15,832 nt of DNA, from IMG/VR virus record IMGVR_UViG_2675903609_000009, one strand, 5' to 3'. Below the pieces are notes generated by a model that saw only the letters and a program-made list of their open reading frames with translations, was not told the origin of the DNA and made no database searches. Below are positions 2,553 through 8,912 of this stretch, piece by piece. The position numbers and the translations under genes are program-made. The stretch comes from a virus. Taxonomy: Duplodnaviria; Heunggongvirae; Uroviricota; Caudoviricetes. How positions within the stretch are numbered: the first letter of the stretch is position 1; each line of letters starts with the position of its first letter.

Positions 2553-4214
2553 TTACACCCCGCTAAATTCTTCCAGTTTCTGGCGGTGGCTGTCGCTTAT
2601 ATCAAAAGCAAAATCCTCATGCTCTGCCTGGAATGTACCAAACGCCATCAGCGCCGCTACGCTCGGGTCTATCTTGTTCGGTGATTTTTTCTTGTTCGGC
2701 TTGATATTGGCGTTCGCGTCACTCTGCATCACGACGTTACTCATCGACCAGGACAACACCGGATCGCCACGATGCACAATCACCCTGCGGTTAACAAAAA
2801 CTTCGAACGATTTCGCCGCCGGACTGAATCTGAGGTAGGTTTGCGGGAACGGCTCCACCTCAAAACCAGCCCCCTGTAATTGCGTCCTGAGATGCGTGGC
2901 GTTCCACGTATCAAAGCCCACCAGCCTGATATTAAATTTCTCCGCATCCTGCATGATGTCATCTCTGATCCGGTCGTAATCAATGCAGTCACCTGGCGTT
3001 GTGCGTATCCAGCCCGCTTTAGCCCACTGGCGATAGACAGCGCGGTTTTTATTGGCGGGGTTCTGTAGCTGGAACTCCGGCAGATAATGACGGGAAATCA
3101 GCATAATGGTTTTACCGACCGGAAAGGCATAGCATACGCTGGAAATATCGCTGGTTGATGATAAGTCCAGCCCCGCGTAACACTCCTGACCGTGTAAATC
3201 TTCCTCCGTGAACGTTCCGGCACACTCAGCCCATGCACCATTACCCATCCACGGGGTAGTCCCCTGACACCAGATATTAAATCGCTTTGTCATCATCTCC
3301 ACCCACTGCGACGGAATACCCCGCGCTTTCTGGATGGTTGAGGCCAGTTTTTCACGATCCACGGAAACATCAATATTAGGGTTCGCCTTTATCCACATCG
3401 CCGGATCATCAACCTCGTTTTCGTCGTCCAGTTCGTAAATCAGTACAAAAATTGAATCGTTGACCTCTTCGCCGTCCAGGATCTGGCAGCAATAATCATA
3501 GTGCTGTTTACAGGCTGAAACGACGTTACTGCCCGATGTGGTAATGGCAAATAACAGCCCTTCGGGACGTGCGCCCATCCCCAGCTCAAGCGCGGAATAA
3601 ACGCCGTTATCGGGGTGTAGGTGGTATTCGTCCACGATGGAAAGACTGGGGTTTGTCCCCTCGATGGTTGCCGCTTTTGCTGCCAGCGGCTTTAACAGGC
3701 TGTTGCTTTTCGGGTGTATCACCTTATGCGCCTGAATATTCACCCGCCTGCGTAACGGTCGGGATAAAAGGCACATCTGACGCGCATTATCAAACACGAT
3801 CCGCGCCTGGTCACGGCTCACCGCTGCGGTGTAGATATCCTGCTGACCGTTCTCCATAATCAGAAACCAGTTAGCCAGAATCGCGGCGGTCGTGGATTTC
3901 GCATTTTTGCGCGGCACTTCGATAAAGGCGCTCGTGTATTTGCGCCGTCCGGTGGCCTTAACCTTAAAGCCGAGGATGCACGCAAAGGCGAACTGCTGCC
4001 ACGGCTCCAGCTCAATGGGTCTGCCACGCATCGGTCCTTTTACGTGCGGGCACACCCTGGAAAAGGCAATAAACCGCTCCACAACCTCACGATCGAACGT
4101 GTAAAGGGGGCTTTTAAGGTCCGAAAAGTACCGTTTAACAGCCTGTTTTAACCGTTTACAGGCCGGAATTTTGCCCGTTTTTACGTCTTCTGCGTACTTA
4201 TTCCAGGCGGTCAA
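2553..4214 (-). CDS. Terminase large subunit (TerL)
   Basis: 553-aa ORF with Walker A-like VPRKNAKST and Walker B-like IVDEYH plus a C-terminal nuclease-type region; apparent TTG start at 4214 preceded by GAGGA; overlaps terS end by 17 nt. Confidence 0.9.
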   Translation of the reverse strand: MTAWNKYAEDVKTGKIPACKRLKQAVKRYFSDLKSPLYTFDREVVERFIAFSRVCPHVKGPMRGRPIELEPWQQFAFACILGFKVKATGRRKYTSAFIEVPRKNAKSTTAAILANWFLIMENGQQDIYTAAVSRDQARIVFDNARQMCLLSRPLRRRVNIQAHKVIHPKSNSLLKPLAAKAATIEGTNPSLSIVDEYHLHPDNGVYSALELGMGARPEGLLFAITTSGSNVVSACKQHYDYCCQILDGEEVNDSIFVLIYELDDENEVDDPAMWIKANPNIDVSVDREKLASTIQKARGIPSQWVEMMTKRFNIWCQGTTPWMGNGAWAECAGTFTEEDLHGQECYAGLDLSSTSDISSVCYAFPVGKTIMLISRHYLPEFQLQNPANKNRAVYRQWAKAGWIRTTPGDCIDYDRIRDDIMQDAEKFNIRLVGFDTWNATHLRTQLQGAGFEVEPFPQTYLRFSPAAKSFEVFVNRRVIVHRGDPVLSWSMSNVVMQSDANANIKPNKKKSPNKIDPSVAALMAFGTFQAEHEDFAFDISDSHRQKLEEFSGV

Positions 4215-4821
4215 GCTCGTCCTCTTCTTCTGTTTCCGGTGGATTTTTACGGCGGCTTATCGGGTCAAAACCGAGCAAGGAGGCCATTTTTATCATCACT
4301 CTTTCAGCGTCGGATTTTGCGCTTAATGCGGGGTTTCTGCTCTCGCCGCCCTGACTGTTAACAATGCTGAACCCGCGCGCCGCAAGGTCTGCAACGGCTT
4401 TCCGGTAAATGGAGTAGTTGACGCAATACAGTTCCAGATTGCTCCAGTCGGCGGGGGTCAGGTCTCCCCGTTCCGCAAGCTGCCGCGATTTTTCCCGCCA
4501 CTGCTTCACGGCGATATCATCCAGGTAGGCGGGGGGGGGGNNNNNNNNNNNNNNNNNNNNNNNNNNNNNNNNNNNNNNNNNNNNNNNNNNNNNNNNNNNN
4601 NNNNNNNNNNNNNNNNNNNNNNNNNNNNNNNNNNNNNNNNNNNNNNNNNNNNNNNNNNNNNNNNNNNNNNNGTCACGGTCGGTTAATCGCTTCGCTGTGA
4701 TGCGTTCTGCGCGTCCTGACGCTTTATCTTTATGCCCTGTTTCCTGTGTCTTCCATGCGTCACGCTGCCTTATAAGTCCACGGATAAGGCGGTTTTGTTC
4801 CCGCTCATTCATCAGCGTCAT
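4198..4821 (-). CDS. Terminase small subunit (P27-like), interrupted by N run 4541..4671
   Basis: C-terminal half (LELYCVNYSIYRKA...SRNPALSA...LLGFDPISRRK) resembles P27-family small terminases; sits between HNH and terL. Start taken at ATG 4821 (alternative 4812); the ORF-track N-terminal extension to 5043 overlaps the HNH gene and is probably not translated. Middle of gene unreadable. Confidence 0.7.
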   Translation of the reverse strand: MTLMNEREQNRLIRGLIRQRDAWKTQETGHKDKASGRAERITAKRLTDRDXXXXXXXXXXXXXXXXXXXXXXXXXXXXXXXXXXXXXXXXXXXXPPPAYLDDIAVKQWREKSRQLAERGDLTPADWSNLELYCVNYSIYRKAVADLAARGFSIVNSQGGESRNPALSAKSDAERVMIKMASLLGFDPISRRKNPPETEEEDELDRLE

Positions 4822-5245
4822 ACATCCAGTTATTGCGGTTAGCAGCCCGTTCTTCCTCTTCACGAAATCCACCTGCGGCACGCTTGCTTTTTGTTGCCGG
4901 ATCAAGCCATTTCGTTTTCTGGTTATGACACGCCTGGCACAATGGTTGATGGTTCCATTCGGGCCAGAAGAGAACATCATCACCGCCATTAATCGGGATA
5001 ATGTGATCCACCACCACGGCGGGCGTATATATCCCCTTCTCAAGGCATCGCACGCATAACGGGTTTTTACTCAGATACATGGCGCGGTATTTGTCCCACT
5101 GTCTGGAATATCCACGCGCGCGGCGGTGTCCTCGTCTGGCATCCTCTGCACGCCATGCCGCCCGCCTGTGCTCCTCACACTTGCCGGATTTAACGCGCCT
5201 GTTACAGCCTGGTTCTGTGCATCGTCTTAATGGTTGCCACGGCAT
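4805..5245 (-). CDS. HNH endonuclease (packaging-associated)
   Basis: Cys pairs CxxC...CxxC and DHIIP...N...H...K HNH motif; located directly upstream of terS/terL as in HK97-like cos packaging modules. Confidence 0.85.
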   Translation of the reverse strand: MPWQPLRRCTEPGCNRRVKSGKCEEHRRAAWRAEDARRGHRRARGYSRQWDKYRAMYLSKNPLCVRCLEKGIYTPAVVVDHIIPINGGDDVLFWPEWNHQPLCQACHNQKTKWLDPATKSKRAAGGFREEEERAANRNNWMYDADE

Positions 5246-7744: not shown

Positions 7745-7754
7745 CTGTATGCTG

Positions 7755-8084
7755 TTAATCGTCGTCTTCCGGCAATGCCAGAATCTTGATCGCGTTCGAA
7801 TCCACCACGCCACCGCCTAAATATTTTTGCGTGAAAATTTTGATGAATCCTGGTTCTGTCAGGTTGTCCGGTCTGGTGCGAACACCTGTTTCGTGATCAA
7901 CAATGTAGTAACCGCGTTTGAAGTCACCCAGGGCAATAACGTTATCAGGCATAAACTCCAGATATTCGACCGGAAGGCCCAGCAACGTATCAGGATCACC
8001 CGCCTGTAAACGGTCGCGCCAGATATAATCACCGTTCGCGTTCTTCACCTTCTGAAGTTTTGCCGCCGTCGTGGAGTTAACCAC
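7755..8084 (-). CDS. Major capsid protein, C-terminal portion (separated from the N-terminal portion by an in-frame TGA at 8085..8087)
   Basis: LLGLPVEYLEFMPDNVIALGDFKRGYYIVD...GGGVVDSNAIKIL matches the conserved C-terminal region of HK97-fold capsid proteins; same reading frame as 8085..8912. Confidence 0.8.
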   Translation of the reverse strand: MVNSTTAAKLQKVKNANGDYIWRDRLQAGDPDTLLGLPVEYLEFMPDNVIALGDFKRGYYIVDHETGVRTRPDNLTEPGFIKIFTQKYLGGGVVDSNAIKILALPEDDD

Positions 8085-8912
8085 TCAGACCGCGTTTTTG
8101 CGGTATTTTTTACGTAATGCAAATTTCAGGTCGATCAGCGGGTCCGCAGATGTCCACGCCAGAGATTCGGAAGGTTTAATTACCTGCAACGTACCAAAAT
8201 CACGCTCTTTGTCGTTCTTCTCTGCACGGGGTACGGATAAAAAACCTTTTGCTTTTTTGTCACCGTCGCCCACAACCAGATCGCTTTCTTCGGTTTCCGT
8301 GAAGGTGTCGCCAATCTCACCCGTCAGCCATGAAAGGATGTCCACATCGGAAAAATCCACGATTTCCTGTGTGGTGCGCGGGTACGCATAGACCGGATAC
8401 AGCTTAATGCTCACCTCGTTAATCTGCGGGGTGCTGGTCTGTTCGCGTGCCTTACCCTCTTCACCGTGGTTAACGGTCGCACCGCCAGCGGAAACAAGCT
8501 GCTTAAACTCGTTGCTGCTGATTTTCTTCACGGTACAGATGCGACGCATGGTGGATTCATCCGCCAGCATTCGCATGATTTCGGTGTTCAGTTCAGGGAT
8601 AACGGTATAACCACCATCAGCGGGAACGCCTGTACTTAATGCGCGGGTTTCACCGGTCAGAATGTAGTTGCGTAGTTCTGCGGGGTCAGTGGTCTGGCTG
8701 CTTTTACCTGGCTTGCTGCGCTCTTCGTCTGCAATGGCTTCAAGGCGGGAAATGTCTTTATCGAGGGATTCAGCTTTAGCGCGTAATTCGTCAAATTTTG
8801 TGCCCTCAGCATCGTTAAGACTGCGGTTTTCTTTTTCAGCGTTCTCCAGCATGTCGCGCATCTGATTTTTAATGGCGGTTTTCTGCTGGCGTAATTCGAT
8901 TATTCTCTGCAT
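8085..8912 (-). CDS. Major capsid protein (HK97 fold), N-terminal portion with coiled-coil delta/scaffold domain; ends at a premature in-frame TGA
   Basis: N-terminal coiled-coil (ELRQQKTAIKNQMRDMLENAEK...) followed by capsid-like body; start at ATG 8912 with AGGA about 9 nt upstream (ORF-track start 8960 is GTG without a ribosome-binding site). Joined parts total about 385 aa, the usual size. Confidence 0.8.
   Translation of the reverse strand: MQRIIELRQQKTAIKNQMRDMLENAEKENRSLNDAEGTKFDELRAKAESLDKDISRLEAIADEERSKPGKSSQTTDPAELRNYILTGETRALSTGVPADGGYTVIPELNTEIMRMLADESTMRRICTVKKISSNEFKQLVSAGGATVNHGEEGKAREQTSTPQINEVSIKLYPVYAYPRTTQEIVDFSDVDILSWLTGEIGDTFTETEESDLVVGDGDKKAKGFLSVPRAEKNDKERDFGTLQVIKPSESLAWTSADPLIDLKFALRKKYRKNAV

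Follow-up and report, generated by a model that had tools for sequence, protein, structure and literature searches.

The 15,832-nucleotide stretch held as IMG/VR virus record IMGVR_UViG_2675903609_000009 (the whole of it is referred to below as the window) very likely carries the nine-gene capsid-and-packaging operon of a capsid-forming phage-inducible chromosomal island (cf-PICI) of the EcCIEDL933 type, present here as a defective copy that adjoins phoQ in Shigella flexneri. Every head and packaging gene lies in a single co-directional block on the minus strand (8912-2553; Table 1). The capsid gene of this block carries a nonsense codon, and the start of the small terminase subunit gene, terS, has very probably been deleted together with half of a candidate cos site. 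Given both lesions, the copy is predicted to be unable to build capsids or to be packaged, and is very probably a decaying, immobile cf-PICI.

The operon and its island

Pfam models identify the genes of the block as Phage_capsid, Peptidase_S78, Phage_portal, Phage_HCP, Phage_connect_1, HNH, Terminase_4 and TerL_ATPase plus TerL_nuclease. In intact relatives (L001 and an O157:H7 genome), RefSeq annotates nine genes, namely capsid (385 amino acids), protease, portal, head closure, head-tail connector, HNH, a 60-amino-acid hypothetical protein, a P27-family small terminase subunit (TerS, 118 amino acids) and the large subunit (TerL, 553 amino acids), with genes for PerC, SSB, a primase, an AlpA-type protein and an integrase upstream of the module. 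E. coli annotations contain this nine-gene block with identical junctions, and 80 related loci have it too (counts out of 80 refer throughout to the IMG/VR relatives). The O157:H7 copy is 95.6-98.7% identical to the window module at the DNA level.

Other properties of the island also agree with a cf-PICI. Such islands are about 10-18 kb in size, and this one occupies at least ~14.3 kb of the window: similarity to copies integrated elsewhere starts at ~1491-1517, and the far (integrase-side) attachment site lies beyond the window. All eight families stand in the published order, although two of the genes are damaged here, and they are accompanied by a PICI-type integrase, alpA regulation and replication modules. 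A cf-PICI has no lysis genes and no complete tail module, and among the open reading frames (ORFs) of the whole window no tail or lysis families were found. The flank encodes PhoQ, many S. flexneri assemblies encode the exact TerL protein of the window with the same phoQ-phoP-purB surroundings, and the gap-free S. flexneri locus L091 differs from the window by 0-1 mismatch per aligned segment.

The terL-side end of the island lies ~30-55 nucleotides (nt) past the phoQ stop codon. Related copies are found at allC/allE and in tqsA, which means that several attachment sites are used by this family.

A nonsense codon in the capsid gene

An intact capsid orthologue of 385 amino acids is annotated in L001 and L093, whereas in the window a single-base change has turned Trp276 into a stop. 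PF05065 matches both halves of the gene (8912-8085 and 8084-7755, profile positions 1-166 and 169-278, respectively), so that the stop removes the last 110 residues, which correspond to profile positions 169-278. The TGA is shared by all seven S. flexneri copies examined (strain SFBU1023 and six further loci), and its occurrence in seven independent assemblies excludes a sequencing error: it is a real, lineage-wide mutation. All 349 E. coli genomes that contain this capsid segment show one difference from the window over its 81 bases, and thus none of them has the TGA form. Searches with the exact TGA-bearing 31-mer matched one species-representative genome, that of S. flexneri SFBU1023, and gave no match in the viral contig collection.

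The start of terS and the assembly gaps

The window contains three N runs that do not preserve length. The first (4541-4671, 131 N), together with six odd C's, corresponds to 78 nt in the nearly identical, gap-free L091; in the intact L001, window positions 4535-4671 correspond to 174 nt. The second (5635-5706, 72 N) represents 15 nt in both L001 and L091, and the third (9328-9450, 123 N) represents 61 nt in L091. These runs behave like scaffold gaps, and ORFs that read through them are unreliable. Their wrong lengths created two false ORFs, a "131-amino-acid" Hc1, which is really 112 amino acids long, and a "204-amino-acid TerS" starting at 4812. The original prediction had taken the latter position as the start of terS; that ATG instead opens a separate small gene, and in gap-free relatives the small gene and terS are in different frames, their fusion in the window being a product of the wrong N-run length. 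RefSeq lists the small gene as a separate coding sequence of 60 amino acids (57 from the second ATG, at 4812); it matches phrog_3173 (E 7.5e-37) and is present in 80/80 relatives. The Terminase_4 match covers the C-terminal part of ORF 4812-4198.

In intact relatives terS opens with ATGGCAAGACCACCG, the start sequence being ATGGCAAGACCACCGAAAGCC. In all six of the near-identical gap-free S. flexneri genomes, 97 nt are missing between two CCCCGCC repeats, and with them the distal half of the spacer that precedes terS, its ribosome-binding site, the ATG and eight codons; gene callers are left with only a CTG start. Among the E. coli matches listed, all are undeleted (two pieces spanning ~198 nt). 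In the window the N run covers the site, and because of the near-identity with L091 the deletion is very probably present there as well.

Gene order and junctions

The order on the minus strand is capsid, protease, portal, head closure (Hc1), head-tail adaptor (Ad1), HNH, the ORF of 57-60 amino acids, terS and terL. The Pfam identities bear out the capsid-to-TerL order of the original prediction, and 387 complete E. coli genomes as well as six gap-free S. flexneri loci are colinear with it. This excludes the inversion by misassembly at the N runs that had been named as a possible refutation. The predicted "adaptor, connector" pair does exist, with Hc1 (PF05521) actually preceding Ad1 (PF05135).

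In the proposed synteny comparison with cf-PICIs, the arrangement is the published layout of proteobacterial cf-PICIs, with EcCIEDL933 as the prototype, in which the order "capsid-protease-portal-head connectors ... hnh-terS-terL" is conserved (Alqurainy et al., bioRxiv 10.1101/2022.09.08.507074). Since the founding paper states this order, the "inverted order" is already known and not a new feature; this layout is the hallmark of a satellite family that was described in 2022-2023. Its description as the reverse of the usual terminase-first order fits insofar as the head genes are reordered, but it does not hold for the packaged form opened at cos. There, as in the linear record of the cf-PICI "Escherichia phage vB_KppS-Ant", terS and terL come first and HNH stands near the end, which is also the case in HK97.

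The junction coordinates given originally are accurate. Five of the eight junctions overlap, compared with 4/8 in the HK97 head genes as annotated; the claim that almost every junction is a stop/start overlap fails at capsid/protease, with its 39-nt spacer, and at protease/portal, with a spacer of 1 nt. The overlap frequency is within expectation, no tighter than in HK97 and ordinary for phage late operons. Tight translational coupling along the whole block is likewise only partly sustained, as the overlaps are real but a conserved terminator-like hairpin 3' of the capsid gene argues against uniformity.

The TTG start proposed for terL is well supported by sequence comparison. GAGGA lies 5 nt upstream of the TTG at 4214; the reading frame is closed by a TAA 14 codons upstream, no canonical start intervenes, and the next canonical start is a GTG at codon 45. 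The TTG and the 17-nt overlap with terS are kept in 80/80 related loci and also in vB_KppS-Ant, and alignments with distant phage TerL proteins begin at residues 1-7. At exactly the TTG codon, the Pasteurella orthologue Pmp8 carries an ATG (MSIWHDYAE versus (M)TAWNKYAE).

A candidate cos site

The original prediction expected a cos site near terS from the HNH-TerS-TerL trio and did not identify one. The cos-type logic stands: HNH adjoins terS-terL, as HNH-dependent cos packaging requires, and in intact relatives a conserved spacer is found at the expected place. In the window this place sits under the N run, which is why it was missed, and in the sister genomes half of it is deleted. The spacer between the small gene and terS measures 118-124 nt (about 122) in intact relatives, reaching up to 170 nt in 3/79 loci. 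It is non-coding and contains the blocks GGGGTGGGGG, TTTTCAGGAC, TCAAATTTTT and AATTTTTT(T)GAAAATAA, which are kept from E. coli via Klebsiella-type elements to a Pasteurella element whose TerL is 69% identical.

The linear record of vB_KppS-Ant, obtained from induced particles, ends with ...TTTTCAGGAC and begins with ACGAAAAGG.... Integrated copies with identical flanks (L094 and L097) have 68 extra nt between these two ends, running GAAC...GAAAATAAA, as expected of a linear molecule with its ends inside this segment and terminal read drop-out. The HK97 genome is opened between HNH and terS, with its ends 42 nt past a G-run and 49 nt short of the terS ATG; in the cf-PICI spacer the G-run is 97 nt before the terS ATG, and TCAAA/TTTTT is ~48 nt before it. 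By conservation and by analogy with HK97, the spacer is the probable cos site of these islands. The ends of IMG/VR contigs were uninformative as cos markers, since most of these contigs are prophages predicted in isolate genomes; L099, a metagenome contig, begins close to the spacer, not inside it.

The hairpin after the capsid gene

The intrinsic-terminator-like hairpin that directly follows the capsid stop codon folds at -17.6 kcal/mol (z -4.85 versus shuffles). Relatives whose capsid proteins are 58-76% identical have a different stem of the same design (hairpin plus T-run) at the same position, and of four such variants folded separately three gave z scores from -3.0 to -4.5; the hairpin of vB_KppS-Ant does not stand out from shuffles (z -0.54). 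In HK97 a putative terminator is annotated after gp5 and folds at -21 kcal/mol. RNAalifold on a MAFFT alignment of capsid-protease spacers detected only weak covariation (2 pairs), as stems and loops vary in length, and folding the spacers one by one told more. Upstream of the capsid gene, the minus strand showed no sigma-70-like promoter. The protease gene is preceded by too little space for a promoter, so that downstream genes are probably expressed via read-through, and the hairpin may act as a leaky terminator or a stabiliser that raises capsid output over that of the other products.

Terminator-like hairpins also occur on the other side of the capsid gene. Most S. flexneri copies and the O157:H7 copy have an extra segment of 340 nt just upstream of this gene (L091 4797-5136); it contains a 74-amino-acid ORF of unknown function, and a copy of a 23-nt hairpin of this sort stands at each of its two ends. 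Only one copy is present in the window (9172-9194, with the hairpin itself at 9176-9193 on the minus strand), in L090 and in L001, all of which lack the 340-nt segment; this segment looks like a moron-like cassette gained or lost via recombination between the hairpins.

Other features

The remaining features are listed in Table 1. The true start of the protease may be, and more likely is, the ATG at 7700 rather than the annotated one at 7715: the former is preceded by GGTGA, whereas the latter lacks a ribosome-binding site, and L005-type relatives have ACA in its place. The 93-amino-acid ORF starts 13 nt past terL, follows it in 58/80 relatives and is outside the nine-gene packaging set. In 30/80 relatives (L047 7432-9372, L068, L075 and others) the module is a variant without the Hc1 gene, in which Ad1 directly follows the portal gene with an 8-nt overlap. 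In ten of these loci the sole Hc1-like gene belongs to an adjacent HK97-like prophage ~8 kb downstream, which suggests that this eight-gene module may borrow Hc1 from a helper. Rfam and tRNA scans of the window gave no matches.

Table 1. Features and gene junctions of the cf-PICI in the window.
Feature	Position	Strand	Remarks
Major capsid protein gene (HK97 fold family, 385 codons), pseudogene here	7755..8912	-	split, 275 + 109 codons
In-frame TGA replacing TGG (Trp276 to stop)	8085..8087	-	single-base difference from L001
Intrinsic-terminator-like hairpin, GAAGGGGCU-AAAA-AGCCCCUUU + U-run	7716..7745	-	directly after capsid stop codon
Prohead serine protease S78	7143..7715	-	PF04586, E 5e-47
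Portal protein	5930..7141	-	PF04860, E 4e-88
Head closure Hc1 (HK97 gp7-like)	5538..5933	-	PF05521; phrog_25 "head closure Hc1"; holds N run 5635-5706
Head-tail adaptor Ad1 (HK97 gp6-like)	5245..5541	-	PF05135; phrog_40 "head-tail adaptor Ad1"
HNH endonuclease, packaging accessory	4805..5245	-	PF01844
Small gene, 5' part, function unknown	4672..4812	-	3' end hidden by N run
N run, 131 N	4541..4671	.	covers small-gene end and remaining small-gene/terS spacer, probable cos region
terS (Terminase_4/P27 family), visible part	4198..4540	-	PF05119; 118 amino acids in intact relatives
terL, 553 amino acids, TTG start	2553..4214	-	PF03354 and PF20441; overlaps terS by 17 nt
93-amino-acid ORF 3' of terL, function unknown	2258..2539	-	phrog_1561
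D5_N/DUF5906 primase (D5-type)	10318-12066		
Phage_AlpA	14040-14228		
Phage_integrase with Arm-DNA-binding domain	14603-15832		gene ends the window
Junction capsid/protease			+39 nt spacer with hairpin plus T-run, no overlap
Junction protease/portal			TGAtATG, +1 nt spacer
Junction portal/Hc1	5933/5930		ATGA
Junction Hc1/Ad1	5541/5538		ATGA
Junction Ad1/HNH	5245		TGATG
Junction HNH/small gene (57-60 amino acids)	4812/4805		ATGAATGA
Junction terS/terL	4214		17-nt overlap, TTG

Alternative explanations

The original prediction treated the block as a working operon, and an intact, functional cf-PICI operon that is coupled from capsid to terL and has an unrecognised cos near terS is the first alternative to consider. 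Seven of the nine genes retain their full length and are almost the same as the E. coli copies, and the overlaps are real. Against this stand the lineage-wide nonsense codon in the capsid gene and the loss of the terS start and half of the spacer in each of the near-identical gap-free genomes. In EcCIEDL933, mutating any gene of the module abolishes transfer, except for the hypothetical gene 1792, where transfer is severely reduced (10.1101/2022.09.08.507074). We therefore regard a functional operon as improbable.

Slightly less probable still is an HK97-like prophage remnant that lost its tail and lysis genes and was never a satellite. The head and packaging proteins all belong to HK97-type families and an HK97-like terminator follows the capsid gene, but the unit of ~15 kb recurs at different chromosomal sites (allC/allE, tqsA and phoQ) and its int-alpA-primase backbone is of the PICI type. 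No phage was found with the cf-PICI order, and the closest true phages in the collection, HK97 not being among them, show only 33-40% identity in TerL and capsid. In the literature, cf-PICI proteins are less than 40% similar to phage homologues, and the family is experimentally established as a satellite: for EcCIEDL933, helper induction, small island-encoded capsids and transfer with helper tails were all demonstrated by experiment (10.1101/2022.09.08.507074).

Equally improbable is a domesticated remnant kept for another role, such as interference with phage assembly via the intact portal, protease, HNH and TerL. Seven genes are still open and the exact TerL protein occurs in 8909 blocks of the assembly index, a count that says little on selection in a clonal species sequenced as heavily as S. 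flexneri. No defence domain was detected, the substitutions are too few for a selection test, and recent inactivation accounts equally well for the open genes. That the order or the lesions are artefacts of N runs or of sequencing errors is the least credible explanation, for all that three N runs have wrong lengths and produce false ORF fusions, since order and junctions are identical in gap-free complete genomes and the TGA recurs in independent S. flexneri assemblies.

A defective EcCIEDL933-type cf-PICI thus remains the preferred reading, and several points weigh against it or against the functions proposed for its parts. The O157:H7 copy used for comparison may not be EcCIEDL933 itself. 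Near-cognate read-through of the UGA by tRNA-Trp would restore wild-type capsid protein at a low level, so that a null state is unproven. The 97-nt deletion is unreadable in the window itself, and the ten C's flanking the N run (4531-4540) fit neither of the two forms, intact or deleted, exactly. The cos assignment draws on conservation, the ends of one database record and analogy; BLAST for similarity to the HK97 cos gave no significant match, only chance matches of 7-8 nt, and the layout alone is comparable. The leaky-terminator role is a prediction, and the totals of promoter and terminator scans of the window were at chance level.

Proposed working of intact members and implications

According to the cf-PICI papers, a helper phage induces the island through AlpA, and the operon gives a small T=4 HK97-fold capsid from the capsid protein, the S78 protease and the portal. 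The island has its own cos, at which TerS, TerL and HNH cut the DNA for packaging in unit lengths, and Hc1 and Ad1 complete the head so that the helper phage tail can attach. In intact members, we propose that cos would lie within the conserved spacer of ~122 nt between the small gene and terS, that the hairpin plus U-run after the capsid gene would act as a leaky terminator through which the first gene is expressed above the rest, and that terL would be translated from a weak TTG inside the end of terS. In the window copy the capsid gene is cut at codon 276, as read directly, and the 97-nt deletion has very probably removed the terS start and half of the cos region; helper induction, capsid formation and transfer are all predicted to be lost.

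Tentatively, and with somewhat less than even confidence, we combine these suggestions into one reading: a cos in the spacer, stoichiometry set by a leaky terminator, and a fixed, immobilised S. flexneri cf-PICI that lacks cos, terS and capsid. Its first part would place cos in the gene-1792/terS spacer and the cut close to the invariant TCAAATTTTT, in an HK97-like layout (G-run, ~45 nt, cut, ~48 nt to the terS ATG). In its second part, the capsid-first order and the conserved leaky terminator would set the capsid-to-portal stoichiometry in cf-PICIs. If true, this would provide a functional reason for the reordered head genes. Neither suggestion is stated in the published cf-PICI work consulted, and the conserved spacer offers a concrete, testable place for the cf-PICI cos.

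The S. flexneri copy is better annotated as a defective cf-PICI with a capsid pseudogene, a truncated terS and a cos that is probably lost, and surveys should leave it out of their counts of mobilisable satellites. The window also illustrates how N runs can both generate false ORF fusions and conceal the very non-coding site that is sought.

Comparison with known systems

The window copy shares with EcCIEDL933, the cf-PICI prototype from E. coli O157:H7 (15.4 kb; 10.1101/2022.09.08.507074), the nine-gene module, its order and the int-alpA-primase backbone, including a small gene at the position of "hypothetical gene 1792"; S. flexneri is named in the same work among the species with homologous regions. 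It differs in its location next to phoQ in S. flexneri, in the Trp276 stop and in the probable 97-nt deletion in terS/cos, and it is predicted to be immobile.

HK97 (NC_002167) has the same families (a P27-like or other TerS, TerL, portal, S78 protease, HK97-fold capsid, Ad1, Hc1 and HNH), a terminator-like hairpin 3' of the capsid gene, a similar frequency of overlaps and, when its map is drawn as a circle, HNH immediately ahead of cos and terS. Its order is terS, terL, portal, protease, capsid, Ad1, Hc1 and tails, with HNH at the right end before cos. In contrast, the cf-PICI is without tail genes, and capsid-protease-portal and Hc1-Ad1 are each internally reversed while gene orientation is kept; a single inversion therefore cannot yield the two reversed head blocks.

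A packaged example is vB_KppS-Ant (LR881103, 16.5 kb, from induced particles), also a cf-PICI although deposited as a phage, with 81% identity in TerL and 65% in capsid. Its linear map starts with terS-terL and continues, later, with capsid, protease, portal, Hc1, Ad1, HNH and, last, the small gene. It differs from the window copy in being intact and of a diverged lineage, in carrying extra cargo after terL and in missing 68 nt of the spacer at the record ends. This record (LR881103.1, L082) contains integrase, primase, head and packaging genes without a tail module, and its coding sequence after terL labelled "tail length tape measure protein" appears to be mislabelled or to be cargo.

Classical Gram-negative PICIs (EcCICFT073 and EcCIED1a) have int, alpA and replication genes and AlpA-mediated helper induction in common with the cf-PICI, whereas they are without capsid or terminase genes and redirect the helper TerS with Rpp (10.1101/2022.09.08.507074).

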